From a virus: a stretch of 64,000 nt of DNA. The DNA lies in IMG/VR virus record IMGVR_UViG_3300036985_002546, positions 7,812-71,811 of that record; one strand, written 5' to 3'. The notes beneath the pieces are model-generated. The model had not been told where the DNA came from. It was given only the letters and a program-made list of their open reading frames with translations, and made no database searches. The position numbers and the translations under genes are program-made. Of this stretch, positions 3,742-57,479 are shown one piece after another (positions within the stretch are counted from its first letter, which is position 1; the number at the start of each line of letters is the position of its first letter).

Positions 3742-3744
3742 GTG

Positions 3745-4716: not shown

Positions 4717-4734
4717 GTTAATTAGACCTTTTAT

Positions 4735-5748: not shown

Positions 5749-5759
5749 AAAAAATTTTA

Positions 5760-6959: not shown

Positions 6960-7023
6960 GTGTATTTTATTTCCTGTTAGTTGGTTGTGGCGATTTCAAA
7001 GATACTTTGTAATATACTAGTAA

Positions 7024-7052
7024 ATAGTACACCAATCGTGTTTCTTAGTCTA
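7024..7052 (-). promoter_or_regulatory. Candidate sigma70-type promoter in front of the second D-E-(ABC)n module
   Basis: TAGACT-N17-TACTAT in the largest intergenic gap (6960..7070) between array genes. Confidence 0.4.
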
Positions 7053-7070
7053 GAAGTAGTTCAAAGATTT

Positions 7071-7367: not shown

Positions 7368-7370
7368 AGA

Positions 7371-8366: not shown

Positions 8367-8375
8367 AATTAGTCC

Positions 8376-40752: not shown

Positions 40753-42195
40753 TTAGCGAGTAAGAGATCCAATGTTTACGTAGCGTAACCATTTCCGTGC
40801 GGCGAACAGGATCGGGGTCCCATACAGTAGGATCATCCAGCGGAAGGCAGGACCCATTACAGCAAGGTCCATACGTAACATCGGTAGTAACTGACGGAAG
40901 GTTAATACCGATGGAGTCATTTCACCCATGTAAGCAATCGAGGTGAAGGGGAGGAGGAAGTTTACATCGTGGAATGCTGTGGTTCCCGATGGTGCTTGCG
41001 ATGCAGCAGGTAGTTGACCTACGAGGGAGAACTTCGAAAGATCAGAACCTACAGCCGAACTTCCTGCACGTGCAACCGTGCGGTAGACACGGAAGAACTC
41101 TGGAGGATATGTGCCGATTGTGCCTGCGTTGGTGATTGTTAAGTCAATCCGACGATATGCATTCTTCTCAGACTGAGTGATGTCTTGGCTGGAGCCAATT
41201 AGTACAGGAGCGGACTCACCAAAGCGGTTAGCTGCGGTGACTGCGTAAGCGTAGTTATTGGTACCAGTGAATCCACCTTTGTTGAAGTTACCGTTGGTAA
41301 CGCCAGTATTTACAGTGGATGCAACGCTAGCCGGTGTGGCAGGTGCGTTAGCGGAGGTAGCAGCGGCGTGAGGAGAAGGAAGTGCCTTTAGGAATACGTT
41401 TGGATTTAACTCCATTACGCCTGCTTGTGTCATTACGGAATTGACAGAGAGACCGACCATTCCGTTCTGAGGAGCAGGAAGACTGATACGCTCTTTGGGA
41501 TAGAAACCCTTTACTAGGTCTGAGTTGTTGCGATTGCCGAGCCAGAGATCTGTTGGATAAGCAAAGTTATCCACGAGCTTCTGGGCGCCTTCCTCGATGT
41601 CAGCTTCTTGAAGAGCTTCACCTTCTAGATCAATGAAGTTCGAAGGATCGATTAGTGCGTCAAGACCGTTCCATTGTTGTGCTTCACCGCTGTAAGCGAG
41701 CGAGGCATCGCCTTGGAATAGAGACTTTTCAATGCGCTCTAGGAGCCAAAGAATACCGTTCTGATTCTCAAGTGCGATTACATCTCCGTGTGCTGGGTGC
41801 ACAACGGTCATGGGGTGGTCAACTTCTCGTGTGGTACCAATGTACTTGATTAGTGCGGTCCGACGTGCATAGTTACTGTCCTGTGCAGGAGGTAATTCAC
41901 CAGGCATTAGGAATGCCGAGGAATCCGAACCGTAATCAATTAATTGGGTGTACTCTTCGTTGGTGCTGAATGCTGGAGACTTGGGAATCTTCTTCCACAT
42001 TTTGATGTGGTGCGCCGAGTAAGTTACGACCTTCAACGAACCTTCTAGTGATTGTACGCGTAAAGCGGAACCACCAGTCTGATTCACGATGTCATAGCCA
42101 GGCGTAAGGGCTTTGGCTAGTTCCTGTACATCTGTAGAGGTACCAGTACCAAATCCATTAAGAGTCCCACCATTGTAATTCTGGAGACCGATCAT
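40753..42195 (-). CDS. Major capsid protein (480 aa; true start MIGLQN)
   Basis: ELAKALTPGY, GGSALRVQSLE..LK..T, IEKSLFQGD, YGTPIL.A.RKW as in SPO1/Twort-like capsid proteins; RBS AGGAG before ATG 42195. Confidence 0.93.
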   Translation of the reverse strand: MIGLQNYNGGTLNGFGTGTSTDVQELAKALTPGYDIVNQTGGSALRVQSLEGSLKVVTYSAHHIKMWKKIPKSPAFSTNEEYTQLIDYGSDSSAFLMPGELPPAQDSNYARRTALIKYIGTTREVDHPMTVVHPAHGDVIALENQNGILWLLERIEKSLFQGDASLAYSGEAQQWNGLDALIDPSNFIDLEGEALQEADIEEGAQKLVDNFAYPTDLWLGNRNNSDLVKGFYPKERISLPAPQNGMVGLSVNSVMTQAGVMELNPNVFLKALPSPHAAATSANAPATPASVASTVNTGVTNGNFNKGGFTGTNNYAYAVTAANRFGESAPVLIGSSQDITQSEKNAYRRIDLTITNAGTIGTYPPEFFRVYRTVARAGSSAVGSDLSKFSLVGQLPAASQAPSGTTAFHDVNFLLPFTSIAYMGEMTPSVLTFRQLLPMLRMDLAVMGPAFRWMILLYGTPILFAARKWLRYVNIGSLTR

Positions 42196-42223
42196 TTGTA
42201 TACTCCTTTTTCTTTTAGTGGGG

Positions 42224-43273
42224 TTACTTGCCCGCCACAGCGGCTTGGACAAGAGCTAGTGTTGATGGCGAAATGTCGCCACCTGTTTCATATTTAACTA
42301 CATCGAGAGGATGAAGTTTATTGCTCTTTACTAGGTCACACATTACGTCTACGATTTGGCTCTTAGCCATGCTCTCAGTAGATAGGTCTAGACCACCAGG
42401 TCCAAAACTCTTATTCATTACTTGAAGACGGCTCTTAGGCGCGCCTACAGGAGATGAAACTTCCTGAATTTGAGCTTGCGAGGTGCCTGCAATGTGCTGA
42501 CCGATACCAGCAACGGCTTCAGCAATCGACTTCGAGAACTCACCTTGATTAGAGGCAAATCCTTGAAGAGCGTTTTCTAGACGCTCGATACGATTGAATA
42601 CTGGAGCTAGCGACTTGTTGACCTTAGCAACTACACCAGCCTCTACACCAGCAAGACCCTCACCAATGGCGCGAGTAACCTCAAAGAGGATAGGCGACAT
42701 TTCAATACCTTTACGTAGATTGGTAGAATTATTTACTGCGTTAGTAAAAGATTTCTTAGCGTCAGTGCCATCACCATCTAGATCTTCATCTGTCGTATCT
42801 TTGTTTGGATTCGTTTCCGGAACTTTCTTCGAATCACTCTGAGTGCCCGAAGCAGGCGCAGGAGAGGGCTTAGTAGAAGCCTTTGCCACGTCCTTTTCGT
42901 CTTCATCTTCATCTTCTTTTTCAAATGGAAAACCCTTTTTTACTGCCCATGCTTCAGCAGAAGTAAGCTTCTGACCCTTAGCAATCTTGTTGCCGATTAG
43001 GGTAAGAGGGTTGGTGTTCTTTACAATAGCAACTTCAGCCGGAGTAAGAGCTTTGCTCTTAGCGACTTTCGAAGCTAGTGCTTTCTTTACACCGTTGTAG
43101 TCAGTACCATTCTCGTCGATGCCATCATCATGTTCATCGACATCTTCTTGGGATGTTCCTGCCCAAGTACCCGGATTCGAATCAGAAGGGGTAGCGAAAA
43201 GCTGGGTTTGACCAGTGCCTTTGGCTAACCGTTCGAGACGATTCAGGGAAGCAGCGAAGTCTTCAGTCTTCAT
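42224..43273 (-). CDS. Capsid scaffolding protein
   Basis: Between protease and capsid gene; acidic/helical; many K-S/K-A sites. Confidence 0.75.
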   Translation of the reverse strand: MKTEDFAASLNRLERLAKGTGQTQLFATPSDSNPGTWAGTSQEDVDEHDDGIDENGTDYNGVKKALASKVAKSKALTPAEVAIVKNTNPLTLIGNKIAKGQKLTSAEAWAVKKGFPFEKEDEDEDEKDVAKASTKPSPAPASGTQSDSKKVPETNPNKDTTDEDLDGDGTDAKKSFTNAVNNSTNLRKGIEMSPILFEVTRAIGEGLAGVEAGVVAKVNKSLAPVFNRIERLENALQGFASNQGEFSKSIAEAVAGIGQHIAGTSQAQIQEVSSPVGAPKSRLQVMNKSFGPGGLDLSTESMAKSQIVDVMCDLVKSNKLHPLDVVKYETGGDISPSTLALVQAAVAGK

Positions 43274-43282
43274 CGTGTCCTC

Positions 43283-44080
43283 CTATCGTTTTAGTTGATT
43301 TACAAAAATGGCGTTGGCAAATGCCCGCGCCATGGGAAGTGAGTAACCCTTTGATTTCACCATGAAATCAACAGCCTCACCATAATTTACATCAGCAGAC
43401 TTAAAGGTCTGTACTATCGGTTTACCCTCTAAAGATTGGGGTATTAGTAAGCTACCCATACCGTTTACCGATAAAGCTTTCTCTTCCTCTTCTAGCCGTG
43501 CTTTATTGGCTAAACCTTTTGGACAACAAGTACCTTTACACGTTGCGCTACCTGGATTTTTGCACCAAGGATTTTCATTCAAAGATTTCATAATCTCTGC
43601 ATAACTATGTGTATTTACAGGGGAAGCAGTAATTGCTATGTCCTGCAACCAGCACTTGACAATAGTATTGCCATCGCGCTTTAGAACCTTACCCTGTATA
43701 GAGAAGCCAACCTTTCGGTTTGACTTGTTCTCTTCAAGTGTCTTAAGGTGTTCCCACCAGTATTCTGCCCGTTCTTTACCCTTGTATAAGAACGCACTGA
43801 TCCATAAACCGTCTGGAGTAGCTTTACAGTCTAAAGGCTCTCCAACCTTGTTCTCAGGACCATCTTTGTGATCATCATTGATATAACCGTATTTTAAGAA
43901 ATACGATGTATCAATGCCTTTTTGAGTTACAACTTCACCTTGTAAATCACGATGATCCGTTGATGCAACGCCTTGAATTCTACGACGTTTGTCTGTAGAT
44001 TCAGCTTTTGCAAACGATTCTATCGGTGCAAAAAATTGAAAGGTATCTGTTGTTAAGTGTGTGTGCTCTTGATGTTGCAT
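43283..44080 (-). CDS. Prohead protease (HK97/herpes-type fold)
   Basis: IQGVAST...D.QGE.V.Q.GID, IN.DH, GFSIQG, IAITASPVN. Confidence 0.93.
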   Translation of the reverse strand: MQHQEHTHLTTDTFQFFAPIESFAKAESTDKRRRIQGVASTDHRDLQGEVVTQKGIDTSYFLKYGYINDDHKDGPENKVGEPLDCKATPDGLWISAFLYKGKERAEYWWEHLKTLEENKSNRKVGFSIQGKVLKRDGNTIVKCWLQDIAITASPVNTHSYAEIMKSLNENPWCKNPGSATCKGTCCPKGLANKARLEEEEKALSVNGMGSLLIPQSLEGKPIVQTFKSADVNYGEAVDFMVKSKGYSLPMARAFANAIFVNQLKR

Positions 44081-44109
44081 AAAGGATGGTCATTTTCTGA
44101 CCTCCCTTT
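44081..44109 (-). promoter_or_regulatory. Hairpin occluding a strong Shine-Dalgarno and an out-of-frame ATG immediately before the protease start
   Basis: AAAGGGAGGTCA-GAAAA-TGACCATCCTTT|ATG: 12-position stem with one mismatch and one GU pair. Confidence 0.6.
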
Positions 44110-44130
44110 ACTGGAGCATCACATACTAAA

Positions 44131-44158
44131 ACAATACTAAATTCTGGGTTATTGTCAA
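44131..44158 (-). promoter_or_regulatory. Candidate sigma70-type promoter for protease-scaffold-capsid genes
   Basis: TTGACA-N16-TATTGT in the intergenic gap. Confidence 0.45.
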
Positions 44159-44181
44159 GACTGAAATAGAAGAAAGTTTAC

Positions 44182-44397
44182 TCATTTGTTTAAGTAAAGA
44201 GGTGGTCCAGAATCTAATGTATCATCAACCACTCTAAAGGGTAGTTGTACTTCTGCGTTACAACTTTTGCACACAGTATAAAGTAAGTTACCTTTACGTA
44301 ACCACACTTTACCGTGAATTTTTTCTTCTGAAGGAGACAATGATTTAGCTACGACTTTGTCACAATTTGGACAGAGTAGCGTTGCACAATTAATCAC
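44182..44397 (-). CDS. Small zinc-ribbon protein
   Basis: CPNC...CKSC; immediately upstream of the protease gene. Confidence 0.7.
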   Translation of the reverse strand: MINCATLLCPNCDKVVAKSLSPSEEKIHGKVWLRKGNLLYTVCKSCNAEVQLPFRVVDDTLDSGPPLYLNK

Positions 44398-47300
44398 TAT
44401 TGGGTTACCTCGTTATTTAGTGATTTGTACGTAGTTTCATCGACTTCAGCGTGTTCATGTATAGGATGAAAGTGTAGCCAACCAGAAAATTCTTTTTCTT
44501 CGTATGTACGATCTGTTAAGTCCATGGATACGTGAGGTATTATGTAGGTATTAGGAACACTTTCTATTTCTTGTGGTGGCTTCTTTTTTGAATATGATTG
44601 CTGTAGCAACTCAACAACAATTGGATCTACTAACGAAGCTAAAATTAACTCTACTGTTTGGTGTGGATCTACGTCAGCAGCTAGGCCATAACCCCATTCA
44701 TGTGCTATCGTACGACACGCTCTGTCAATGGCAGTTTCAAATGCAGCACCAGCAGAAAGATAACGAATGACGTCCCTAGCAAATGTCATTGTAGCATGAT
44801 ATGTCTGTATAGAATACAAACTAATTCCTTGAGATTCTACAACTCTAGATAAATAATGAGGCCCTATTCGTCTACGTAATCCATTATCGTCAGGTTTACC
44901 GTCTTTATCCTGCTTTGGTATAGCAAATAAAGGTTCGTCTTTTTGTTTTGTGCTTACTAACTCAGACAATATGGAACGAATTCGTTCATCTACGTGTATT
45001 TTACGTGTACCTAACTGTACGACACTATCTGACACTCGTACTTCAGCTGGAGTTAGCGAGGCTAGTTCAGTTACTCGCATACGTCCTTGATCCAACAACG
45101 CAAGACACACAGCAGTAACTTTATCCTTTATTAAATAACTGTTAAATAAATCTATATAATACTGTCTAAATGACGTAATTCTCGCGTCAAATAACGCATT
45201 TTGTTGATTTATAGCAAGTTTAGGGATTTGTTTTATGTCACTGTGTACATAAGTGTGTTTATGCTCGCCCGAGTCTGGATCTCGCCATCTAGCTGCCCAT
45301 AAGTTCTTAGGATCAAATTTATTATAATTTTGATTCCATTCTATTGTTGAAGGATCTTGTGCCGCTGGTGCTCTAGAAAGTTTTTTACCTTCTGGTGTGA
45401 AATACTCTGGATTTTGATCTATAGAAGGTTCAGATGGGTGAACTTTAGCCTCTCCATGAGCTGAATGCCTATCAGCGTGCCCAGTTGGTGCGTTAGTGTA
45501 TCGTATAAAGTTATTGGCTTGGTCTTTGTAATAGTGCTTTGGATGGTCTTCATCACCTTCCATGTGGCTGTAGGTGTGAGACGGATCTACGTTTTTATCC
45601 CGAGTTAGGATACCTAACGCTGCTTTACTTAATTCCCACTCCGCATAAGCTAGTTGAGCTAATTCCAAAGATTTCCCAAAATCAGGTTCTACGAAGTGTT
45701 CTCCGTGTTTCTGAGAATGCATTATCTGTTTAAGTTGCTGAATTGCAGCATTTTGTTGTTCTTTTGGAACACTATTTACAATTTGATTGATATAGCCTGC
45801 ATATTGATCAGCGTGTCCAGACGCTAAACCAGGAGATCTACTAGACCAATCCTCAAGTGAACCTATTTGTGCATCTGCCCATCGTTCGATTGGTGTTTGA
45901 GCTTGAGAAGAACCCGCAAGAGTTGGTGTTTCTTCTCCAGACATTAGAGCTTCTTCTGGATTTAATAGGTGGGCCCTACCTTCAGATGCCTGAGAGATTA
46001 GATTAGGGTCATCTAGACGATTATAACCTTCTCCTGTTCTAGACATTACGTCCACAGGTGTTCCTAATGCTTCAGATATTAGTTCACCTTGTGGATTTTC
46101 ATCATTCTTTTCTGTATTAGGTATGTACGTAGCGCGTCGCATATACTGAAATAACTCACCACCCGCTCCAGCAATTAAACCTCCGAATGACTTGTGTTTG
46201 TATGGATCAAACCGGTCAATTGCTCTTGATATAGCTTTATAGGCAGGTGAATTTTCATCTGATAAACCGATTACTTGTGGTATTTTATACCCTTCGGATT
46301 CTAGTTTCGGATCATATCCTACCTGTGGTGGTAGTGTAGGACCTGTGCCTATTAGCCGAGACATCCAGTATTGCTGTTGTTCTGGATTTTTTCCTAAAAT
46401 AGGACTCTTTGATACTGCTTGCTTGGCCATTTTAACAATATAGGGCCAATACTGTTTAGCAACATCGTCAACAATATTTCTACGTTCTTCTGGACTTACA
46501 TTTAACTCAACTCTAGTACGCTTAAAAGTTCTAACACGTCCAGTTTTGTCTGTAACAACACTAACTTCTTCTTTTGGTCTCCATTGCTTACCACCAGTGC
46601 CTATAGCATTGCGTCGTATGCGATCTTCAAAAGAACCTGGAGTGATGTGAAATGCTTCTGAAGCAGCGCTTTTATCGGCTTCAGATTCGTTAGTACTTTC
46701 TGTAGGGGTACTCTGAACCGGTTCAATAGGCTGAGATTGTCCTTCAGGAGTATTTATAACAGTTGGAGTATCTGGTGTAAGTTCTACAGAACCAGCAGAC
46801 TCAATTTGTGTAGGAGTTTCAGGTGGAGTTCCTCCAGATAGACGCAACTCATCAGATAATTGTGTCTGTACGTATCTCTGTGCTAATTCCCTACTTTGTT
46901 TTTTTAGTATAGGAGCGTCAGGATTTTGTAAGTCAGTTACTTTCCACCTAAGTTTGTCTGGTGGTACTAATCCATCTTTTGTAATAGTCCCTACAATTGG
47001 TGAAATCGTATAACGTGCTTTACCGTCTAAACCTGGATAAGCTTCTGAATGACTCGATATAGCGTACCAAGCTTCAAAGTGTCCTTTACTCTTTGCGTGA
47101 AAAAGTACTGTTTTGTTGTCTGGATTAAAGACATCAAATTCTGTTTCACCTTTTTTGTTCTTTACGGGATGAATTTCTAGGTCTGGACCACCTTGCATGG
47201 GGTGTGTAATGGGAATTTTAGAACCTGCAGTTAACGCGGTGTTCATCCCGTGTTCGTAGTCGGACTTAGCCTGTTCTTCTGGATTTTCTGTTGTTGGAGC

Positions 47301-47519: not shown

Positions 47520-47532
47520 AATTAGTCCTCCG

Positions 47533-48849
47533 TTACACGGTAGGTTTTAACGCCTGATTGTGTTGATTCTGTGAGGAATCCGGCGTTGACAAGTTGTTTA
47601 AGGATCCGTCCGTTGATTCCAAATTTGGCGCATTCCCAGTAAGTTCGGGGTTTTGTTCCGAAATTGGATAACCATTGTTGGAGTCGTTCGGTTGCTCCAG
47701 TTCCATATCTTCTTGCAAAGGTAGTATGTTTTGAGCTACCCCTAACAAATCCCGTTGATCCATCAGGAATCCTATTATCTCTTCCCGTGCTGATTCTGGT
47801 GTTTGTCCTTGGAAGTTGCATCCGGGTCCCCATATCTCACTAGCAATTTGCATTAATTCTGCGTCTTTAGAGTCTCCAATTCTACTCAATATAGCACGAA
47901 CACCGTCAAACGTCTCTACATCTATTGGAGGTGGTCCCATCATACCAGGGAACATAGACATACCAGGCATACCGGGCATAAAAGCCTTCTTAACTGCACG
48001 TGTTTTAGGTCCGTCTGAAGCTATCATACGCTTAAAGGCGTCTATAGTAGTCTCAGTCATTTCACCGAAAAACTTAGGAGTATCATAATGTTCCAGATAT
48101 GCAGCTTTAGCTTCTCTAGGAGAAATAAATCCAAGCATAACCTTATCTTCGTCATACTGCGTAAACTTTGGCGCTTTTAGTTGGTGAATAACAAACACCT
48201 TATTAGACTCGTCATCGGTACCAACATAAACGTCTATGCTATCACCATCATTACCTTCAGTACGTTTAATGAACCCATAAGGATAGTTCATTTTAGTTTT
48301 TCTCGTGGTTCTAGTTCCTGGGTCGTACCAGTGTCTATACTCACCCTTATCAGTTTCTATACCGATAGAAAAACCTTGGAATTGTATAGTTCGTTTTACT
48401 TTTCCATTACTTTTTAGGGCTTTCCACACTAAATCTGTAGTTTGTCTAACTTCAAAACAATCAAAATGTTCAGAAACAAACGACTTATCTACCGCTTCAA
48501 TTTGCTTTAGTTTGGTGTAGTATTCAGCATCTTCTTTTAGATGGTCTACAGCAATCTGTTGAGCAACTTTAGGATCATTAGTATGTTCTAACTCGTGCTC
48601 TGTGCCAGTTTTTAATTCTTTTTTATCAAAATCTTCTGCTGGACCTTTTAACTTTTTTATTTCCTGCTGTTTACTAGACCAAAGAATACAGTGTCCTTTA
48701 GTAGACACCTTAGCATCTTGTTGTCCGTCACTCAGTAAATTACAAGTTTCAATTTCTGACCTAAAATTAACGCAAGTATCACAAACTTCTTCAGAAGTTG
48801 TGTATAGAACTTGTGTAGGTGTAGGCCGTTTAGTAAGAAGATCCGCCAT
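47533..48849 (-). CDS. Multidomain protein: HiPIP-like 4-Cys domain, DUF5661-like domain, phage inorganic-pyrophosphatase-like domain
   Basis: CDTCVNF..C..VSTKGHCILW; G.EHELEHT.D...A..IA.DHL.E...YY.KL; YGFI..TEG.DGD.IDVYVG...YDEDKVMLGF; start MADLL with RBS GAGGA. Confidence 0.75.
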   Translation of the reverse strand: MADLLTKRPTPTQVLYTTSEEVCDTCVNFRSEIETCNLLSDGQQDAKVSTKGHCILWSSKQQEIKKLKGPAEDFDKKELKTGTEHELEHTNDPKVAQQIAVDHLKEDAEYYTKLKQIEAVDKSFVSEHFDCFEVRQTTDLVWKALKSNGKVKRTIQFQGFSIGIETDKGEYRHWYDPGTRTTRKTKMNYPYGFIKRTEGNDGDSIDVYVGTDDESNKVFVIHQLKAPKFTQYDEDKVMLGFISPREAKAAYLEHYDTPKFFGEMTETTIDAFKRMIASDGPKTRAVKKAFMPGMPGMSMFPGMMGPPPIDVETFDGVRAILSRIGDSKDAELMQIASEIWGPGCNFQGQTPESAREEIIGFLMDQRDLLGVAQNILPLQEDMELEQPNDSNNGYPISEQNPELTGNAPNLESTDGSLNNLSTPDSSQNQHNQALKPTV

Positions 48850-49159
48850 CGGAGAGTTCCTCATCTAACCACGATCCAAGTCCATCGTTTGGTTCTGTTG
48901 GTATAGAAGAGGATTGTATTCCTTTGGCTCTCATAAAGTCTAACAGTGACTGAAGTTGTTGTGGACAACCAAGTTCTTGTGCTTCCTGTACTAACTCTTC
49001 TAATTCCTTAACCGGCATTTCTTCTAAGTCAGTAGGATCATACACAGAATCACCAATCATAGGAGGATCTACAGAGTCATCTATAAGTCCATCAACTCCG
49101 TATTGAAGCTGAACGTGTTCTGGTGATAATGGCATGATTTGCCCGAATAATAGTCCCAT
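48830..49159 (-). CDS. Acidic hypothetical protein
   Basis: 109 aa ORF in operon. Confidence 0.55.
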   Translation of the reverse strand: MGLLFGQIMPLSPEHVQLQYGVDGLIDDSVDPPMIGDSVYDPTDLEEMPVKELEELVQEAQELGCPQQLQSLLDFMRAKGIQSSSIPTEPNDGLGSWLDEELSDGGSSY

Positions 49160-49171
49160 TTATATTCCTTT

Positions 49172-50734
49172 TTATTGTTGCATTAAACCTAAAAATTGGT
49201 TCATATTGTCTTGTTGTGGACGTTGCTTAATAACTGAGGGTTCAATTGCTGTCTGTTGTGATCCTGCGTTAGTAGGTGGTGCGTTAATTCCTATATTTTT
49301 TGGTGGAGTCGAGAAGGTCTCAAGCTGTTTTGTAGAAGAACCGGATGAAGGCATTTGGGGTGGCGACGTCATGGCTGCTTGAGGAGGAGCCGGTTTTTGT
49401 AACATTCCTGGAATAGGACCTTGACGATCTGCACCAGAAGGTAATCCTACTGGAGGTTTATTCTGAAATGGAGTCATTTGTGGTACTGGTTTAGGTGCTG
49501 CTAATGCAGGAGGAGCACCAGGACCTGTACCTGGAGGTGTTGAAGCTAGAGACGTACTAGTACTGTCTGGTTTACTAAAAATACCCATTGCTTGTGGTCC
49601 AATACCACCTACACCTTGTTGCATGTTTTGAGGAGAACCAAACCCTTGACGACCACCTTGTGGTTCGTTAGAACGCGGTACTTCACCACGTTGCGCTACT
49701 TGCTCTGAAACACGAGCCATAGGACTCATGACATCCTTTGCTAGCTCACGATGTATCTGTGCGTGTTGTGCATGCATAGGATCTTCCTGTGCGTGTTCAT
49801 CGTGTAGATTCGCAGCTGCTTCGTGATCATCTTTACCGAAATCTTTATGTTCCGGGTGGAATGGATCGTTGTGTACAGTCAAACCGTTTGGAGTGAATCC
49901 TAACGGAGGTTGTTGTGGCTGTTGCTGTTCTTGAGAAGCGGATGTGTTATTAGGGATTTCGCTCTCGCCTGGTTGTTTGTTAGGTGTAGACTGTTGTTGC
50001 TGTTGTAGCGGAACTTTTGGTACACCAAAGTTCTTAAGAATATCAATAGCTTGTCTAAAACTCTTGTTATATGTGGGGGCGCTAAAGTTTTGATTAGACC
50101 CGTGTGCGTGTGTTGGGTAGTGTTGTTTCCCTGTAGAAGTGATGGTATACTTTCCACCGCGTGGACCAATACCTTGTTTTGCTGCATTAAGTTGTTGTTC
50201 TTGTCCTGGAGTTGTTCCACCTAATGGCGTTATTGGTGGTGGTCCGGAAATCAAAGGAGATGCCGACGAAGCAGCATGGATAGCAGCTAATACTTCCGCA
50301 GAGTGTGGATCTATAACTTTACTTTGCTGAGACGTTGGAGCCTGTTGATCACTATGCCCATCACCTAATTGTCCTGCATCCATGAGCAGCGAATCATATA
50401 CTCTGCTATCAGACACAACATCACCAAATAGCGGTTGATCATTTGGATTTGATTCTTGTTGAATTAAATCCTGCATAGATGTGTCTGGGTTAGCTTGGTT
50501 AGGTTGTTTATTTTGTGCGTGATTTAGAAATAAATTTGGACCTGGATCTTTAGGAGCCTTTAGTTGAGAAGGTTGTCCTTGAAAAGATCCTGGTCTAGTT
50601 ATCGGAGGTGGTTGTGATGCTTGTCTGTATGGAGAACCTTGTGTTGGAGCAGGTTGATTTGGTAAAACTGGGATAGTGGATTGGGGTAATGCTTTATCTA
50701 CCCAGTTACATGGTTTTCGACTTCCGTGGTCCAT
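49172..50734 (-). CDS. Pro/Gln-rich intrinsically disordered putative head protein
   Basis: Low complexity; GPRGGKY motif; His-rich helix HEAAANLH...HAQHAQIH. Confidence 0.65.
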   Translation of the reverse strand: MDHGSRKPCNWVDKALPQSTIPVLPNQPAPTQGSPYRQASQPPPITRPGSFQGQPSQLKAPKDPGPNLFLNHAQNKQPNQANPDTSMQDLIQQESNPNDQPLFGDVVSDSRVYDSLLMDAGQLGDGHSDQQAPTSQQSKVIDPHSAEVLAAIHAASSASPLISGPPPITPLGGTTPGQEQQLNAAKQGIGPRGGKYTITSTGKQHYPTHAHGSNQNFSAPTYNKSFRQAIDILKNFGVPKVPLQQQQQSTPNKQPGESEIPNNTSASQEQQQPQQPPLGFTPNGLTVHNDPFHPEHKDFGKDDHEAAANLHDEHAQEDPMHAQHAQIHRELAKDVMSPMARVSEQVAQRGEVPRSNEPQGGRQGFGSPQNMQQGVGGIGPQAMGIFSKPDSTSTSLASTPPGTGPGAPPALAAPKPVPQMTPFQNKPPVGLPSGADRQGPIPGMLQKPAPPQAAMTSPPQMPSSGSSTKQLETFSTPPKNIGINAPPTNAGSQQTAIEPSVIKQRPQQDNMNQFLGLMQQ

Positions 50735-51462
50735 TAGCCTACTCCATTTAATGTGCTTGACCGTCCTTCAACAGACCCACCTAGACAAACATATGACGTC
50801 AAAATGTTGTTTGCAATTTGTTTTTTTCTGTCCAAGGAAACCTCCGTAGTTTCATATAATATACGTATTATAGTTAATGCTTGTGTACCCTCAATAGAAA
50901 AATTAAATATATTTTTTCTAGGACGAACAGTAGCTTCTGTATAAACAATACCTTTAATAAACATTCTAAATTGAGCTAACAAATCATGTGAACCATATAG
51001 CTTAAGAACAGGGTAACCCCTAGTATGCATAAATATAGTGCCGTTTCCATCAATAACACCACGCCAAAAGTCACTACTACACACTACAGAATCCGATGCT
51101 TTAGCAACCATACTTTTTCTAGGAACCACCCCGTATAGGGCTAGGTCATTCACTAATTTTGAACTCCTAACATGTATACTACACCTATTTCCTGTGCCTA
51201 ATGTAGTAACACGCCTATAATGCCTTATTTTATGTTTAGACCCTAAAAATGTCTTGAATTTAATTAGATGGTCTGTATCTATGTCACTAAGACATAGGGA
51301 TATTGTTGGTGCCCCTACTGAGTAATTAACGCACCCATCTGCCATTAAAAAACCAATCCAGTAACAAGATTCAGGTGTTAATGAACTAAATGCATCGTCC
51401 TTTAACGGAAAACGACTACGCCAAGCAGATGTGTTACAGCCTTGTGGCTGACCTGTCAACAA
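50734..51462 (-). CDS. Free-standing two-motif LAGLIDADG homing endonuclease
   Basis: YWIGFLMADG and FWRGVIDGNG motifs, GVVPRKS, SLDRK; AGGAGG before the TTG TTG start. Confidence 0.92.
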   Translation of the reverse strand: MLTGQPQGCNTSAWRSRFPLKDDAFSSLTPESCYWIGFLMADGCVNYSVGAPTISLCLSDIDTDHLIKFKTFLGSKHKIRHYRRVTTLGTGNRCSIHVRSSKLVNDLALYGVVPRKSMVAKASDSVVCSSDFWRGVIDGNGTIFMHTRGYPVLKLYGSHDLLAQFRMFIKGIVYTEATVRPRKNIFNFSIEGTQALTIIRILYETTEVSLDRKKQIANNILTSYVCLGGSVEGRSSTLNGVG

Positions 51463-51907: not shown

Positions 51908-51910
51908 AAT

Positions 51911-52153
51911 TTATTTATCCTTTGCAATTTTGCTTTCAGGCATTTGATCTAATAAAGCTGTAACTGCGTCGTCCAACTCTTTTGATCCGGGTTTAATACC
52001 CTTATGACTTCCACCAGAAATATATTGCCCAACAGAGGGATCTCTATTAGGATTAGCTTTTAAAAACAATTCTGGATCCTCCTCCACAATACTTTTAAGT
52101 ACAAGGTCAGGAGATTCCGGAATATCTAAATAAAGTTGTGGAGTAGAACCCAT
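51911..52153 (-). CDS. Small putative head protein
   Basis: LVLKS and LFLKA followed by NPNRDP..GQY.SGG. Confidence 0.6.
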   Translation of the reverse strand: MGSTPQLYLDIPESPDLVLKSIVEEDPELFLKANPNRDPSVGQYISGGSHKGIKPGSKELDDAVTALLDQMPESKIAKDK

Positions 52154-52162
52154 TTTAATTCC

Positions 52163-53830
52163 TTACTTCAAGTTAGTTTTCATACCACCAAACGGATCGA
52201 ATGGACTTCTCATAAACTCTTGACTGCTTCTACAAATTGGGCACACTGAGTTACTTTTGTGCAGTAATCCGTGTACAACACAAGATTTATATGTATTGTG
52301 TGTTCTAATCTGTTCATCTTCAACTACATTGTTCAGTGTATCACGAATTGGGTCGGCAAGAGAGGTATACATGCGATTTGTTTGAGTAGTAGCTGATCTA
52401 AGTATAGCATTCGGATCATATGAATCAGACCGCAGATAAAAGGGTGTAGAAGATAATGGAACACTGTACCAAGACTTTTTGGTTGTAGGTGGTGTAGCTG
52501 TGTTGTTCTCAGGAAATGGTAGTGGTGCTTGAGGTGCTATTGGAGGTTTTTTGTATCCAAATTGCCCACCTTTACCTCTGTTAGGATTACCTGTACCTGG
52601 TCCTCCTGGACTACCTCTACCTCGTTTTTGTGCCGACATTGGAGTAGGTGTAGCCTTTGGTGCAGCAATAGGTGTAGGTGTAGGTCTTGGAGCGGGTGTA
52701 GGAGCAGGTGCGGAAGGTCTTGGAATTACAGCAGGTTTTGGTGCTGCTTGTGGTGCTTGAGGTAGCGCAGGTCTCGGAATCTTTACCGTTTGTGGAGAAT
52801 TTGCAAACTCATTTACGGTCTTAGGTGCCGTCTTAAAGTCATTTGTGGTCCTAGGTGCCGTCTTAAAGTCATTGGTGGTCTTAGGTGCGTTCGCAAAAGC
52901 ATTAGAGGTAGCAGGAGCAGGTGCTGCTATAGGTTTACTTGGTGGTACAAGAGCCGGACCTATGTTACTACTATGAACTTGAGGTAATGCAGGACCAATA
53001 TTTCCTCCAAAGTTTTCCGACTGAGAAGACATATCTACAGGTTTATTAGTTGGAGCTAATTTTAAATTAGCAGGCATTTTTGGTGCAGGTGGAGTTGCAG
53101 GACCTTGTGGCACTAATGGAGCTAATTTAGTTGTCGGTGGTGCACTAATAGGTGAAGCTGCTTGTGTAGATTGTTTATTCCACCCAGCTCCTGGTCCTAC
53201 CGACGGAGGCGGTGGTTGTGCTGGTGCGGCAGCAGCAACCTGATCCATAAAATGTGGACCAACTGTTGGAGGAGTACTAGGTACAGACGGTTCCGATCGG
53301 GGTGGTAGAGGTATGGACTGCGGATTATACTGAACCCCTGGAACGTGTACACCCTCTTGTGGATTTAATGCTTGTTCTGCATCCTGAACCTGCTGTTCTT
53401 TGAACGATCCTCCTCTACCCATCATACGTCCTACAGTACGTGGTGCTTGAGCAGCAGCACTAATTACTGTATTGGGTGCCTGTAGTTGAGAAGAACCGGC
53501 TTCAGAACCCATACCGTAACCAATATTGTAACCAATTCCAAGTGGATTGAAAGCGTACTGTGAGTTAGGACCTACACCTCCTACAGCCTTTTTAATTTTA
53601 CTGCAAGAACAATTAAGACCTTTCCCACAACTACACTCAATACCTTCTCCTTTATTAATCAATAATTCCAGTAGTTTCAAATCTGAAGAATTGCTTGATT
53701 TTTTAGTTTTTGCTTCGCGTTGTACATCTAGCGCAATCGCAACCGCTTGTTCCTGTGGTTTACCTGCACCTAACTCCCGTTTAATATTAGTTCCCACGGC
53801 AGAATCTTTTTTGCTGTGTATTAATGGCAT
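52163..53830 (-). CDS. Pro/Ala-rich disordered putative head protein
   Basis: N-terminal MPL....K..AV..NI..E...GKPQ.QAVAIAL module familiar from small phage proteins; C-terminal C..H...H....C..C. Confidence 0.65.
   Translation of the reverse strand: MPLIHSKKDSAVGTNIKRELGAGKPQEQAVAIALDVQREAKTKKSSNSSDLKLLELLINKGEGIECSCGKGLNCSCSKIKKAVGGVGPNSQYAFNPLGIGYNIGYGMGSEAGSSQLQAPNTVISAAAQAPRTVGRMMGRGGSFKEQQVQDAEQALNPQEGVHVPGVQYNPQSIPLPPRSEPSVPSTPPTVGPHFMDQVAAAAPAQPPPPSVGPGAGWNKQSTQAASPISAPPTTKLAPLVPQGPATPPAPKMPANLKLAPTNKPVDMSSQSENFGGNIGPALPQVHSSNIGPALVPPSKPIAAPAPATSNAFANAPKTTNDFKTAPRTTNDFKTAPKTVNEFANSPQTVKIPRPALPQAPQAAPKPAVIPRPSAPAPTPAPRPTPTPIAAPKATPTPMSAQKRGRGSPGGPGTGNPNRGKGGQFGYKKPPIAPQAPLPFPENNTATPPTTKKSWYSVPLSSTPFYLRSDSYDPNAILRSATTQTNRMYTSLADPIRDTLNNVVEDEQIRTHNTYKSCVVHGLLHKSNSVCPICRSSQEFMRSPFDPFGGMKTNLK
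52787..52903 (-). repeat. In-frame 30-nt tandem repeat (about 4 units, N.F..AP.T.)
   Basis: NAFANAPKTT NDFKTAPRTT NDFKTAPKTV NEFANSPQTV; boundaries approximate. Confidence 0.8.
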
Positions 53831-53840
53831 ATTGTAACCT

Positions 53841-55961
53841 TTACTGTTTATTCAGACCAGCATGGTCTGCATACTGAGTGTTTGGATCTGCACTATCCTG
53901 TTCACTAGCATCCGGTTGTGGCTGCTGTTGTGCAGATTGTTGAAGAGCTTGTTGGTATACAGGATTAAGCACAGTATCACCACCTGGTAGAGGCGGTAAT
54001 CCGATAGACACGCGACCTTCATTCAGAGTCTTGTAAGATGAAATTTGCTCTACTAACATTTGATGTTTTTCAGTTTCCGATAATTCATCTAGACCTACAA
54101 ACTCAAATGCAAAATGGTCGTCAATCTTGTCTATTATATTTCTATTAAGTAGTTTTGCCATAAAACGAAGTAATGGCTTTAAACCACGATCTCTAGAGGC
54201 TTTAATTTTCCATTCTTGTGAAGATTCGAACAGCGGAGTTTGTTGTTGTCCTCCGTGCATATCAAAGTTCAATTCAGCAGGATCAATTTGATACACTGCG
54301 GTAGATAATTTTATTAAATAATCTAGCCATTTACCAAATTCCATTTCTGAATTTGATTTAGCTAAATCCACCCACTCTAAACCTTCTGTTTGTAGTATTG
54401 GTGTGGTCCAACTACTTTCCACACCTGACGCTTGAGCAGCCCATTGTCTTCTAAAACCTTCTAGTTGTTCTTGTGTAAAATTATCACCTTTTAAGTTTAA
54501 AATTCCTTTAGCTTGTGTGCCGTGGGAAAAAAACCGACGATTATATAATTCTGTGAACAAATGTGCCGTAACTACTGTTATTAATTGCTCTAATTCGCCA
54601 TATCCGTAACCTTGAATATAAATATCACTCCGTGGATTACGTACACCAAATGCTAATTCATCAGAACTGTATACGTTTTCTATTTGTCCGTTTATTATTT
54701 GTACATAAGAAATAGGAGCTTTTCCACCTGATGAAGGTACTCCATATTCTCTTCCTTGGTACAGGTTAGCGAACCTAGCTGGCATGGACGGTACAAAGCC
54801 AGATCTATCGTGGTAGCTCGCGTTTACACCTACATATCGATCATCTGCTGCAATTCTTATAGTTGATGCATCAACAGTCAAAAATTCAAACGGAATATTT
54901 AATCGATCAGGAACAATTTCGAAACAACAGTTGTGGCTTACAAATCCGTTAGCTATATAACTGTGGTCTTCTTCCACCTCTAAGTTGAACACAGGTAGGT
55001 TTTCTACCCACTCCTTAGATACCTTTCCTATTTTGATATAGAAATATTCATCTTGACTGTCAGTAACAGAATACTTAGGCTTCGGATAGCAGAGATAGTG
55101 GTCTTCCGTTAGATTCTCTGCATCCACCCACTCTGGTTTTATATTCTTTTCTCTATATGGGGTCAGTCTAAACCACTTTTCAGTTATTGCTAAGAACGGA
55201 TGTTCTGCTGTTGCACTAATAGACTGCGAACCAGATTTTAATGTAATAAGGTCCCCAGTGTAGTTGCTGTGTTTCTTAGCCACAACAGTACGAAGATTAC
55301 CTGTGTGTGTTCGCACTACATCACCAATCTCTACACTCTCAATAGGTGTAGGCGCCCCATTAACACCCTCAACCATAGTACCCGCAGGCAAACATTGGTC
55401 AAAAAGTAGGCTGTCACGCGTCATTTTTCGTAGAAAAGTCTCAAAGTCATCGCGTTGTACATTACTGTACGGATTTCTCTCTGCTTTGCCACAACGCATA
55501 ATGAAGTCTTCTAACTCTTTAATAAAGGCAACTTCAGCCGGTGTTGTAGTGTGATCAGGATCTTTATGCTTAACCACAAATCCTAGTGATTTAGTCCATC
55601 TATATGGTTGAGCAAAAGTAGCAACTTGTGAACAACGTGTGTTAATAATTGCAGATATAATTGATAATTGACCTGCAATTCTCTTTAAAACATCATAAGT
55701 TAGGCTAAATCTACGATCTTTATACCCAAGACTATACTGCAACGCAAGAGGATCATGCATCCATGATTTTTGCGATCTATCTGCATCTGAGTTAGGTAAC
55801 TGTTTCCATGATTTTTCTAGTTCTTTACGTACTAACGCAGGAATGTGTGCAGTAGCTGATTGGGCAGCTACAACACTTTTTACTACATCTTCCATATCAA
55901 AAGAAGATGTATTTTTTGCAGTCCTACGATTTTTAGTCGTGTTTCTCTGGTTAGTTGCCAT
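53841..55961 (-). CDS. Portal protein (intein-containing)
   Basis: AIINTR..QV..F, RNPRSD....GYG..ELE, FF.HG...KGIL, MEF.KW..YL......YQIDP.E.NF, S.DRGL.PLL.F. Confidence 0.93.
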   Translation of the reverse strand: MATNQRNTTKNRRTAKNTSSFDMEDVVKSVVAAQSATAHIPALVRKELEKSWKQLPNSDADRSQKSWMHDPLALQYSLGYKDRRFSLTYDVLKRIAGQLSIISAIINTRCSQVATFAQPYRWTKSLGFVVKHKDPDHTTTPAEVAFIKELEDFIMRCGKAERNPYSNVQRDDFETFLRKMTRDSLLFDQCLPAGTMVEGVNGAPTPIESVEIGDVVRTHTGNLRTVVAKKHSNYTGDLITLKSGSQSISATAEHPFLAITEKWFRLTPYREKNIKPEWVDAENLTEDHYLCYPKPKYSVTDSQDEYFYIKIGKVSKEWVENLPVFNLEVEEDHSYIANGFVSHNCCFEIVPDRLNIPFEFLTVDASTIRIAADDRYVGVNASYHDRSGFVPSMPARFANLYQGREYGVPSSGGKAPISYVQIINGQIENVYSSDELAFGVRNPRSDIYIQGYGYGELEQLITVVTAHLFTELYNRRFFSHGTQAKGILNLKGDNFTQEQLEGFRRQWAAQASGVESSWTTPILQTEGLEWVDLAKSNSEMEFGKWLDYLIKLSTAVYQIDPAELNFDMHGGQQQTPLFESSQEWKIKASRDRGLKPLLRFMAKLLNRNIIDKIDDHFAFEFVGLDELSETEKHQMLVEQISSYKTLNEGRVSIGLPPLPGGDTVLNPVYQQALQQSAQQQPQPDASEQDSADPNTQYADHAGLNKQ
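54930..55394 (-). mobile_element. Mini-intein (155 aa) in the portal protein
   Basis: Q|CLPAGT block A, TAEHPF block B, VFNLEV..DHSYIANG block F, SHN|C splice junction; no endonuclease domain. Confidence 0.93.
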
Positions 55962-56165
55962 TTAACTTACCCAGCTTTCTTCTACAAGAGGCATAACACT
56001 CTGCCCGGTAGTTTCTGTCTCTACCTTATTTCTGTTTAGCGTTACATTTCTGCTACTCTTACGAGAGTTAAACAGAGAAATATTAGTATTTAGGTTACGT
56101 TGCATAGGTTGCCTACTGGCTGAATAATCCTTTGCAATACTACCTAACACTATTGTATTAGCCAT
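55962..56165 (-). CDS. Small hypothetical protein (start MANTI)
   Basis: ATG overlaps the upstream stop; its own stop abuts the portal ATG. Confidence 0.5.
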   Translation of the reverse strand: MANTIVLGSIAKDYSASRQPMQRNLNTNISLFNSRKSSRNVTLNRNKVETETTGQSVMPLVEESWVS

Positions 56166-57018
56166 TATTATTTTTTCCAATCCAATTATACAAAGAATCT
56201 AATTTACTGTGCAATCTTTGTGATTTCCACTGCACAAATCCTAATTTATGTCGTGGTGGAAGAGACATACACTTGCGTATGTCACTATGTGACATCCCTA
56301 AAACTTCTTCCATATACTGTTTTTCTAAAGGTTCTAAATGCGTGACATACTTAGATTTTTTAATTTCATTGGTCCAAGCTTTAACCAGATCAACTGTAGA
56401 CCAATATGGTGGAGTTTCTGGTGTATTGGGTGGTGTTAAACTCTTTGTAGCATCTCCGTGCCAATTTTGTGTATTTTGACCGTCATCAGGAGAAGCTGCT
56501 GCGGTAGAACCAGGATGTACCATCGTAGCTGTGTTATTCTGACTATCTACCCACTCTTGTTCTGGAATGGATGGTAGTGCTGGAAGACCGGGTTGTACTG
56601 CCTTGTCTTCTTTATCTTCTGTCGATTCTTCTATAGATTCACCTGAATCTATTGGATCTTCTATCTTTTTTAAGTCACAACCACTTTTACACACAGTATA
56701 AAATCTAGTAGCTTCAGCTATACGCTCTGCATCAGCAGCTTTTATTAGTTTAAAATTAGTATTAGGAGTCCATTGAAAATAATGCAAAGAACCATCTGTA
56801 GACTTTATAATACCTCGATATACTTCGTAATCACGGTGTTTCATTACCGTGTAACGTAGTGATTCCGGTACCACCTTCAGTTGTATAGATTTCTCTACAA
56901 ACTCTTCATCTTTGTCTAAAGATAAAAGATTTTGAGACCGATACACGTCTAAAAAAGACCCAGGTTCGTCTGTTGTGTGTTGTGCCGCAGATAAAGGATC
57001 TGACTCGTCTGTAATCAT
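56158..57018 (-). CDS. Hypothetical protein rich in K-S/K-A sites (start MITDE)
   Basis: ATGA coupling at 57018..57015; VEKS, IIKS, LIKA, VCKS, LVKA, IKKS. Confidence 0.65.
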   Translation of the reverse strand: MITDESDPLSAAQHTTDEPGSFLDVYRSQNLLSLDKDEEFVEKSIQLKVVPESLRYTVMKHRDYEVYRGIIKSTDGSLHYFQWTPNTNFKLIKAADAERIAEATRFYTVCKSGCDLKKIEDPIDSGESIEESTEDKEDKAVQPGLPALPSIPEQEWVDSQNNTATMVHPGSTAAASPDDGQNTQNWHGDATKSLTPPNTPETPPYWSTVDLVKAWTNEIKKSKYVTHLEPLEKQYMEEVLGMSHSDIRKCMSLPPRHKLGFVQWKSQRLHSKLDSLYNWIGKNNNG

Positions 57019-57479
57019 AAGTTCCCACCATATTTTAACTGCCACTCACGAAGTCTATCTAAATACTTTGCTTGCTCTCCCTGCATATGACTACTAACGT
57101 CACTAAATTTGTTTTGATTTTCAGAAGCAAAGTCTACTGGATGTTCTTCTGTAGCAGGCTTGTCAAATAAAAACGAAGTAAAGGATTCCGGAAGTTGTGT
57201 CGTACTGGCTGGTTCTGTGTTAAACGATACACTTTTCATGTTAAAACAAACTGTCCCTAACCTATGATTTCTCCCACAACTAGGACAAACAGTACTCCCT
57301 GGAGACCGTTTAGCAGCTCCAATCAGTGGATTACCTTGTCCCATCATCTTGTTAGCTTGTTTTTCCGCCGTAGACTGGTGTGGCAAAAAGAAATCCGAAT
57401 CTTTAGTCACACCAGTTTCAGACCTAACTAGGTCTGCATAATTTATCATATTCGATTTGATAAATATCGGCGATTTCAT
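57015..57479 (-). CDS. Hypothetical protein with CPSCG..H....C metal-binding motif
   Basis: 154 aa; IFIKS near the N-terminus. Confidence 0.6.
   Translation of the reverse strand: MKSPIFIKSNMINYADLVRSETGVTKDSDFFLPHQSTAEKQANKMMGQGNPLIGAAKRSPGSTVCPSCGRNHRLGTVCFNMKSVSFNTEPASTTQLPESFTSFLFDKPATEEHPVDFASENQNKFSDVSSHMQGEQAKYLDRLREWQLKYGGNL

Follow-up and report, generated by a model that had tools for sequence, protein, structure and literature searches.

Candidate prohead-protease cut sites mark leaders and domain borders in a portal-to-protease cassette of an uncultured SPO1-like phage

The DNA analysed here is a 64,000-nucleotide stretch (the window) of the IMG/VR virus record IMGVR_UViG_3300036985_002546, covering positions 7,812 to 71,811 of a record that is a single 71.8 kb virus contig. 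Its head region (40753-57479) holds a cassette of nine open reading frames (ORFs) between the portal and prohead protease genes, and throughout this region a tetrapeptide that we read as a candidate protease cut site is enriched. Every long ORF of the window lies on the minus strand; from the 144 ORFs listed, we analysed the 68 non-nested minus-strand ones; those of the plus strand, each of which is nested in a minus-strand gene, were excluded. In coding-strand order, ORFs of 154, 295 and 72 amino acids (aa) are followed by the portal gene, the nine insert ORFs (555, 80, 157, 242, 520, 109, 443, 1040 and 71 aa), the protease, the scaffold, the major capsid protein (MCP) and the tail genes, which include a sheath, a lysin-type tail protein and fibres. 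Primase and ribonucleotide reductase genes are found further upstream. Insert proteins are referred to below by their length (c555, c80 and so on), and the 295-aa protein upstream of the portal as u295.

The MCP has its best match in Bacillus phage Nachito (Table 1), aligns with Spounavirinae MCPs at 40-43% identity and stays below 60% identity to all 775 matching phage records. The portal (43%) and protease (39%) are likewise homologous to those of Nachito, and the head genes are of the SPO1-like (Herelleviridae-type) kind. Judged by these genes, the window comes from a distant, uncultured myovirus of this kind, whose head module it holds. In SPO1-like head modules the protease gene directly follows the portal gene, a rule from which the window departs: the gap between the two measures 9761 bp here and about 14 kb in the related contig G001, compared with 84 bp in Nachito and 99 bp in Listeria phage A511. 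The separation of about 9.7 kb given in a preliminary description of this DNA, made by eye, is thereby borne out.

A search of viral contigs with the C-terminal domain of c1040 returned nine related loci on contigs of up to 171 kb; the same search with the whole 1040-aa protein alone gave no matches. The protease relatives L001-L004 (56-63% identity) and contig G001 (= L009) have the arrangement of the window, and in all eight related loci having flanks the gene order is the same wherever covered: (u295)-portal-c555-c80-c157-c520-InPase protein-c1040-variable extras-c71-protease-scaffold-MCP. The insert is a conserved 10-14 kb cassette, particular to one clade of uncultured SPO1-like phages, and this synteny rules out a random recent insertion. 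It is absent from A511 and Nachito, where tblastn with the insert proteins gave no match. A 538-aa ORF of L003 that had been taken for a portal turned out to be an InPase homolog, the true portal lying 4 kb further.

The motif counted was [LIVMFYW]-x-K-[SA] (HxK[SA]), and the expectation was obtained from residue shuffles within each protein. The head region carries 43 sites where 14.9 are expected (16 ORFs, 5557 aa; z 7.5), a number reached by none of 2000 shuffles. Tail and other genes hold 30 sites against 21.8 expected (28 ORFs), an array of repeated ORFs 2 against 4.8 (12 ORFs) and the upstream replication genes 5 against 6.75 (12 ORFs), so that the window outside the head region shows the motif at 1.1-fold. 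The preliminary description had claimed that the tetrapeptide recurs in the protease, the scaffold, the portal and their neighbours and is sparser in tail and array genes, and had suggested comparing head with tail proteins; every instance it listed is present in the translations, and the counts agree with it on both points.

The motif had been picked by eye, and 18 control motifs were therefore run. In the head region the controls, among them HxR/E/D/Q/N[SA], HxK[TG], the reversed motif and non-hydrophobic-xK[SA], reach 0.8-1.7-fold, compared with 3.66-fold for HxKS and 2.13-fold for HxKA. Among all 400 H-x-a-b motifs HxKS ranks first in the head region (28 vs 7.66; Bonferroni p 4.8e-6); outside it, 17 sites stand against 18 expected. 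The same motif also tops the 400 in G001 (27 vs 6.15). Counting residues outward from the lysine (P1), the sites share an extended context with acidic residues at P4/P5, Val>Leu>Ile/Phe at P3 and Leu/Phe at P2'. A compositional artefact is ruled out by the within-protein shuffles, the control motifs and the 400-motif scan. Helical periodicity was likewise rejected, as shifted or reversed motifs reach just 1.4-1.7-fold. The enrichment is real, and its specificity concerns the head module as well as this tetrapeptide.

Within the head region, the excess is shared by the canonical head proteins (19 sites vs 5.55 expected), the nine insert ORFs taken jointly (17 vs 7.67, p 0.002) and the three ORFs upstream of the portal (7 vs 1.74, p 0.0003); the 109-aa and 72-aa ORFs have no site. 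The ten insert ORFs of G001 carry 30 sites against 11.8 expected (0/3000 shuffles). At eight further loci the insert ORFs are enriched 2.1-3.4-fold (every p<=0.016), and the genes downstream of the MCP there total 24 sites against 20.2 expected. For these counts the near-identical L014-L016 were treated as one lineage, and at loci without a portal the insert was taken as all ORFs upstream of the protease.

The MCP links the motif to a maturation site. An ATG preceded by an AGGAG Shine-Dalgarno sequence at codon 20 of ORF 40753-42252 is probably its true start. In the GenBank record of A511, the mature peptide of the capsid gene cps begins at residue 24 (boundary K23/S24), and in a MAFFT alignment the ALK/SFTTGY of A511 occupies the same columns as ELAK/ALTPGY of the window, which the preliminary description had proposed as its equivalent. 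The columns also match DLQK/ALEAGY in the relatives and NLSK/ALEAGY in Nachito. The two phages share homologous MCP, protease and portal genes, and the A511 MCP loses 23 residues, with the cut after Lys at the aligned position. The Nachito protease (7 sites vs 0.87 expected) and scaffold (5 vs 1.06) are enriched as well. From these comparisons, these proteases seem as a family to cut after Lys and before Ser/Ala, with a hydrophobic P3 preference that looks strongest outside the A511 branch. Our literature search found nothing on the cleavage specificity of Herelleviridae proteases.

The scaffold is the densest carrier of the motif, with 8 sites against 1.6 expected spread along its 349 residues, four of which are kept in position in all three full-length relatives. 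In the protease, self-sites near K25 and K165 are conserved in six of six sequences, including Nachito and A511 (31-35% identity); the one near K165 would remove the C-terminal ~100 residues. H71 and S127 are invariant across 10 aligned proteases and, judged from the alignment, compatible with a His/Ser catalytic pair. The portal has motif sites at K28, K50, K124 and K535.

The distribution of the sites within proteins follows leaders and domain borders. The lysine of a candidate site falls within the first 30 residues in 8 of the 16 head ORFs, against 4 of 52 others (Fisher p 5e-4), and Shine-Dalgarno sequences back the start codons. Across the clade such leader sites recur in c520 (7/7), c80 (3/3), c71 (9/9), the protease (9/9, its N-terminal self-site), c1040 (6/9) and c157 (7/7, six within the first 40 residues and one at residue 41 of a longer ORF call). 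The proteins c520 and c157 have one common leader pattern, G-S/P-R/K-x-P-L-N/H-W..., and no other BLAST similarity. In 21 of 26 divergent relatives of c1040, HxK[SA] falls among the first ~20 residues, and a variable Pro/Ala/Gly linker leads from it to a conserved hairpin. This hairpin module (GNYKYxY / GGKY..R.W..W.Y.Y) was seen in 12 instances, 10 of them with a site <=60 residues upstream; as a general rule for what follows a cut site it is weak, being confined to c1040 and the extra genes of G001.

The borders were examined around two domains, the TopIB-like domain at the C-terminus of c1040 and the InPase domain of the 443-aa protein. The last ~400 residues of c1040 occur stand-alone or within proteins of 1400-1800 aa. 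Of the 59 rows of multi-domain relatives (58 proteins), 56 carry one or more sites in the 40 residues that precede the TopIB-like domain; this stretch, an otherwise unconserved linker, holds 111 sites against 6.4 expected, while the 300 residues inside the domain hold 14 against 46.2 (P 3e-8). Among 38 stand-alone forms, 15 have a site upstream of the domain anchor, 12 of these at exactly -14, with leaders as short as 7-10 residues; many of the remaining forms begin just past the cut position. InPase is bracketed in the same manner, with a site in the <=40-residue upstream flank in 22 of 31 proteins (mode -6), in the downstream flank of equal length in 25 of 31 (mode +11), and inside the domain for 2 of 170 sites. 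The impression that sites often mark domain boundaries, also recorded in the preliminary description, is thus upheld by the counts. Their depletion inside the domains suggests that the domains are meant to survive cleavage.

Not all InPase proteins have these flanks. A more distant InPase clade on ~190 kb contigs is without the downstream flank site, and in the metagenomic 513-aa protein P0118, where InPase is fused to Peptidase_S78_2 (XkdF-type; precomputed Pfam), there are zero HxK[SA] sites; this argues against the tetrapeptide being a structural requirement of the fold. The window protease has no similarity to the S78_2 domain of P0118 and no match to the curated S78 and S78_2 models.

Table 1. 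Positions of the head-region genes, the features within them and the putative tape measure gene
Feature	Position	Strand	Basis or remark
Putative tape measure (by position), 689 aa	25895-27964	-	after two overlapping chaperone-like ORFs (27966-28800), before tail lysin
Major capsid protein, 480 aa	40753..42195	-	phrog_752 E 1e-92; 42.5% identity to Nachito MCP
Predicted MCP propeptide, 28 residues, ending ...ELAK, cut before ALTPGY	42112..42195	-	A511 alignment
Scaffolding protein, 349 aa	42224..43273	-	position between protease and MCP; no family hit
Prohead (head maturation) protease, 265 aa	43283..44080	-	phrog_1028 E 5e-52; 39% Nachito, 32% A511
c71, zinc-ribbon protein, 71 aa	44182..44397	-	CxxC...CxxC; weak zinc-ribbon Pfam matches
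c1040, 1040 aa	44397..47519	-	TTG start, GGAGG Shine-Dalgarno
TopIB-fold domain with degenerate active site, c1040 residues 634-1040	44397..45620	-	AlphaFold2 pLDDT 91.4 (33-sequence alignment)
443-aa protein, DUF5661 (77-123) and InPase (157-281)	47533..48864	-	Pfam InPase E 3e-35, DUF5661 E 5e-9
c109, acidic ORF, 109 aa	48830..49159	-	no motif site, no family hit
c520, P/Q-rich protein, 520 aa	49172..50734	-	14-residue leader ending VDK/A
LAGLIDADG-like homing endonuclease, 242 aa	50734..51462	-	phrog_4645 'endonuclease' E 4e-34
c157, 157 aa	51434..51907	-	19-residue leader ending LVK/A, resembling c520 leader
c80, 80 aa	51911..52153	-	sites K20, K32; 2 sites vs 0.35 expected
c555, Cys-rich protein, 555 aa	52163..53830	-	first 48 residues match phrog_2423 E 4.5e-18
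Portal, 706 aa including intein	53841..55961	-	Pfam Phage_portal and several portal PHROGs
Portal mini-intein, 155 residues (190-344)	54930..55394	-	TIGR01443 intein_Cterm 37.7 bits (cut-off 15.6)
Three ORFs upstream of portal (72, 295, 154 aa)	55962..57479	-	295-aa protein motif-dense

The largest protein of the cassette, c1040, consists of a 16-residue leader (…ILQK/S), a beta-hairpin module, a middle region, the sites K616/K632 and the C-terminal domain. An exhaustive HMMER search gave 106 representatives. As a whole the protein has no Pfam, PHROG or Atlas match, its profile is unmatched in the Protein Data Bank (PDB), and its full-length AlphaFold2 (AF2) model is of low confidence (predicted local distance difference test, pLDDT, 41.9); profile and model succeeded at the level of the domain. 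Foldseek matched the domain model to 26 PDB chains at E<=1e-3. At the top stand TopIB enzymes of the two-domain clamp fold (D. radiodurans TopIB, 2f4q, at E 2e-9, the human enzyme Top1 and the topoisomerase of variola), and tyrosine recombinases come further down; profile matches to vaccinia and variola TopIB lie at about E 1e-5.

The catalytic residues were mapped by profile alignment to vaccinia TopIB, using the vaccinia residue numbers that we take to mark the catalytic positions. R815 and R839/K840 are present in the window, together with Q905 for Arg II, Y944 for His and L963 for Tyr, so that the catalytic pentad Arg-Lys-Arg-His/Asn-Tyr is incomplete; the closest 10 relatives read R-R-K-Q-H-L at these positions, and the giant relatives P0065 and P0066 retain R-H-Y. 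Because Gln replaces Arg II and Leu replaces the Tyr nucleophile, we name the domain TopIB-fold and not an active enzyme; it is probably a non-cleaving member of this fold. Bacterial, poxviral and eukaryotic TopIB enzymes share the two-domain clamp; given the missing Arg II and Tyr, an active topoisomerase was rejected for the clade of the window. TopIB-fold proteins of phages Motura and PaBG are annotated as topoisomerases, and a literature search found no relevant report of TopIB packaged in phage virions. Poxviruses package TopIB in their virions.

The gene preceding c1040 encodes the 443-aa protein, whose sites K127, K148 and K293 lie between DUF5661, InPase and the C-terminal part. Five of the giant relatives of c1040 were scanned with Pfam: InPase is present in four (P0065, P0066, P0092 and P0056), DUF5661 too in three. 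Four giants (P0065, P0066, P0081 and P0092) score for Topoisom_I at 31-58 bits (cut-off 23.7), and P0092 carries ART-PolyVal. Because the giants fuse Topoisom_I, InPase, DUF5661 and ART-PolyVal, the adjacent 443-aa and 1040-aa genes are, on domain content, the split form of a fused polyvalent protein. The insert proteins of the window have 2-3 modules each, and the fully fused form occurs in the 1400-1800 aa relatives only. Among the insert ORFs of the window no peptidase domain was found apart from the prohead protease itself (Pfam E<=1, PHROGs E<=1e-3), and the embedded zincin-like metallopeptidase (MPTase) of polyvalent proteins was not detected there. The variable extras of G001 include a Zeta_toxin-like kinase (E 1.5e-25; L009 5442-6545, minus strand) and a 910-aa ORF (L009 2356-5088, minus strand) with a marginal match to an ATLF-type zincin (28.7 bits, cut-off 27.4). 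In both, the cut motif is followed by the '...GxPGNYKYxY' hairpin module ahead of the domain.

The remaining cassette genes have few recognisable relatives. Present in eight of nine related loci, c71 lies directly upstream of the protease in every case; as a guess, it is a regulator or pseudo-substrate. Proteins of this family end G-P-x-L-Y-L-D/N, and the c80 family starts ...L-Y-L..., a common 'LYL' element. The protein c520 is 27% identical to a 509-aa ORF of G001 and had only 3 relatives in a word-indexed search, while c157 is 45-66% identical over 6 loci. In c555, the C-terminal part is what 4 loci have conserved. Members of phrog_2423, which matches its first residues, are stand-alone phage proteins of ~52 aa, and c555 seems to be such a small protein fused to a large Cys-rich one. 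For c555 and c520, Atlas, relaxed Pfam and homolog searches gave nothing informative. Homologs of u295 lie upstream of the portal in L013, L014 and L017, and its first site (VEK/S, VTK/A, VHK/S) stands in similar local sequence in the window, L014 and L017, the latter two holding the annotated homolog ORFs.

The portal intein starts with Cys190 after LFDQ, ends VSHN344 and is followed by the +1 residue Cys345, with a Pfam Intein_splicing match in addition; the portal flanks without it rejoin the conserved FDQ / CFEIVPDR of Nachito, and it is missing from the portals of L013, L014 and L017. The 242-aa ORF has a Pfam LAGLIDADG_3 match below the cut-off (E 0.012), a strong AGGAGG Shine-Dalgarno sequence and a 29-nt overlap with the 3' end of c157, and no homolog was found among the nine related loci. 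A homing endonuclease is the best reading for this ORF, which makes it a selfish element and not cargo. In the related loci, interruptions of about 0.8-1.2 kb split the protease gene of L010 (17069-18700) and the portal and InPase genes of L011 (2-2020 and 6248-7278); they hint at additional inteins, introns or homing endonucleases in the head module. At the other end of the window, the array at 130-9362 (minus strand), nearly motif-free by the count given above, is an alternation of ~330 aa and ~70-98 aa ORFs, eight large and four small, poor in Lys (2.8%). These are presumably tail-fibre or receptor-binding paralogs with chaperones.

The best explanation of the whole, and one that we consider likely, is that the cassette proteins are cut by the prohead protease as packaged cargo of polyvalent type. 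The protease would cut after Lys within hydrophobic(P3)-x-Lys / Ser/Ala and, like its counterparts in relatives, trim the propeptide (28 residues here) from the MCP, degrade the scaffold (here through eight sites), and cut itself (near K25 and K165) and probably the portal. The cassette would represent a polyvalent effector set in separate genes, made up of DUF5661 with InPase, a protein whose C-terminal end is a TopIB-fold DNA-binding domain, and conserved unknowns, to which the cassettes of relatives may add a Zeta-toxin-like kinase and a zincin-like domain. Cargo with N-terminal leaders would be co-assembled into the prohead, where the protease would remove the leaders and separate the domains, leaving the mature pieces in the head with the DNA. 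Prohead proteases act inside the assembled prohead, so that their substrates would be prohead contents. The processing and polyprotein logic is strongly supported by the sequence patterns described above. From these patterns we infer actual cleavage of the insert proteins and their residence in prohead and virion, and by analogy with known systems they would be delivered into the host with the DNA. The preliminary description had cast the genes of the head region as protease-cut polyproteins; the processing logic stands, and the homing endonuclease at 50734-51462 has to be taken out.

Several observations weigh against this account. Taken singly, only 5 of the 16 head ORFs reach p<0.05 (MCP, scaffold and the 71-, 80- and 295-aa proteins); most insert proteins are not significant on their own (p 0.1-0.5), the large ones only jointly, and counts over homologs are not independent events, as the sequences are related. 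Enrichment extends to the putative tape measure (7 sites vs 2.0 expected, p 0.004), which has all seven sites within its first 370 residues and no PHROG hit. The sole experimentally anchored site is that of the A511 MCP, as annotated in GenBank, and with Ala at P3 it falls outside the HxK[SA] definition; in A511 itself the head proteins as a whole are not enriched (protease 2 vs 0.88, scaffold 2 vs 1.41, MCP 0). The protease has no curated-family match in Pfam, NCBIfam, phmmer against the PDB or a profile of 10 proteases. The HxKS site of c71, conserved in 9/9, lies within the zinc ribbon, and may be structural. Flanking sites stand at fixed offsets (-14, -6, +3/+11) and could be conserved structural elements, an objection partly answered by the distant InPase clade and the leaderless stand-alone forms, which are without them. 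The 58 multi-domain relatives were compared as protein sequences. Finally, the phage is known from sequence alone: no cultured relative with the cassette was found, and the TopIB-like domain is unmatched in 50,697 phage records.

Three other explanations were considered. The insert proteins may be real substrates of the protease and yet serve as assembly parts (core, inner body or auxiliary scaffold), to be degraded and expelled or to remain as structural filler, as the T4 core proteins gp22, gp67 and gp68 are degraded by gp21 (PMC9958956). In the manner of core structural genes, c157, c520, c80, c71 and the C-terminal part of c555 keep their order throughout the clade. The P/Q-rich c520 and the acidic c109 have no enzyme-like matches, and the TopIB-like domain of the window is without the catalytic Tyr. 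Some of the conserved small insert proteins could indeed be core or scaffold parts and not effectors. For the cassette as a whole we consider this unlikely: InPase, ART-PolyVal, Zeta-toxin-like and zincin-like domains are polyvalent domains of effector type (PMC5512222), and the sites are depleted in folded domains, whereas those of the scaffold are spread along its whole length.

It is quite improbable, in our view, that only MCP, scaffold, protease and portal are cut and that the tetrapeptide of the insert is structural or compositional, for example helix ends in Lys/Ser/Ala-rich linkers. The fixed offsets from domain cores, the c71 site inside the zinc ribbon, the lack of significance of insert proteins taken singly and the enriched tape measure would all fit such an origin. 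However, the same motif borders three domains with no relation to one another and closes the leaders of four or more unrelated families, the surrounding linker is unconserved, and control motifs are not enriched; moreover, leaderless stand-alone forms start where the cut would fall, and the distant InPase clade is without the flanks. Very improbable is that another protease, an embedded zincin-like MPTase/ATLF-like enzyme or a host enzyme, cuts the insert proteins and that the shared motif is coincidental: MPTase-mediated processing of polyvalent proteins has been proposed by Iyer et al. (PMC5512222) and G001 has the ATLF-like match in its 910-aa ORF, but the insert of the window has no peptidase domain besides the prohead protease, and its motif is identical to that at the MCP maturation site and at the conserved protease self-sites.

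Processing of packaged proteins by a prohead protease has precedents. In phage T4, IPI-III and Alt enter the prohead core, have their N-terminal peptides removed by gp21 and are injected with the DNA; the internal proteins are non-essential, and gp21 self-activates by N-terminal cleavage and trims the MCP (PMC9958956). The clade of the window has counterparts to what is described there, namely short conserved leaders ending in the motif, an N-terminal protease self-site and a leader common to unrelated families. The T4 protease motif is Glu-specific (L/I-x-E), unlike the predicted Lys at P1 of the window protease, which is SPO1-type (phrog_1028). Also unlike T4, the cargo of the window is multi-domain, would be cut between domains as well and sits in one portal-protease cassette; leader targeting is a proposal. 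For SPN3US, phiKZ and 201phi2-1, the motif of gp245/gp175 defines many head substrates, with mostly N-terminal propeptides that hold multiple motifs, and the giant-phage protease loses its C-terminal part by self-cleavage (PMC10052503), as the window protease would at the site near K165. The proteases of these giant phages cut after Glu in a motif of A/S/G-x-E type (PMC10052503), and the genomes are >200 kb. Their ejection proteins, unlike the cargo of the window, are not of polyvalent-domain type and not in a portal-protease cassette.

The cassette also resembles the polyvalent proteins that phages and conjugative elements encode, as described by Iyer et al. 2017, who predicted that phage InPase proteins are packaged and injected and assigned their processing mainly to an embedded MPTase, assemblin-like peptidases being rare C-terminal fusions with a presumed role in virion assembly (PMC5512222). 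Shared with the proteins described there are InPase, DUF5661, ART-PolyVal, the Zeta-toxin-like kinase and the zincin-like peptidase, which in the cassette clade lie beside virion genes. Unlike those proteins, with their 2-15 domains, the set of the window is split over genes, has the predicted Lys-specific motif at its borders, and had no MPTase in our searches. Since the protease gene closes the cassette of the window, the idea of processing by this protease is anticipated in outline by that work, as its main text presents it. In this main text 'Topoisomerase' appears in a reference title only; the supplementary domain lists may contain the TopIB-like domain or the leader under an LPD name (PMC5512222). 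Our literature search found no description of polyvalent proteins processed by a prohead protease. The Dar proteins of phage P1 (DarA, DarB, Hdf and DdrB) serve against host defences, are packaged in the head and proteolytically processed, and have their incorporation linked to the morphogenesis of the head (PMC5512222). Lineage and gene location differ from those of the window, and the sole homology detected is an InPase-type PHROG match annotated 'DarB-like'.

Proteins that phages package and inject before gene expression starts are their first weapons against the defences of the host. To our knowledge, packaged cargo is known in detail for few models (T4, P1, N4 and phiKZ-like phages). Throughout an uncultured branch of SPO1-like phages, and among more than 50 divergent polyvalent proteins, such cargo appears to be recognisable by a simple rule, hydrophobic-x-K/[SA] at leaders and domain borders, which is anchored to one annotated maturation site. 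This case points to the prohead protease as the enzyme that turns polyvalent proteins into separate effectors, a step so far mostly credited to embedded metallopeptidases. The leader is a candidate for capsid targeting and, as such, a possible tool for loading foreign proteins into phage heads, and the nucleophile-less TopIB-fold protein would be a new kind of candidate genome-associated cargo. As a tentative joint reading, the shared leader might be a capsid-targeting zip code and the Lys-specific prohead protease the universal scissors for polyvalent domains. In that case, processing of a large class of polyvalent proteins would fall to the prohead protease instead of an embedded metallopeptidase, cargo would be readable straight from sequence in such phages, and a catalytically dead TopIB clamp would ride the packaged genome, perhaps protecting or marking the entering DNA.

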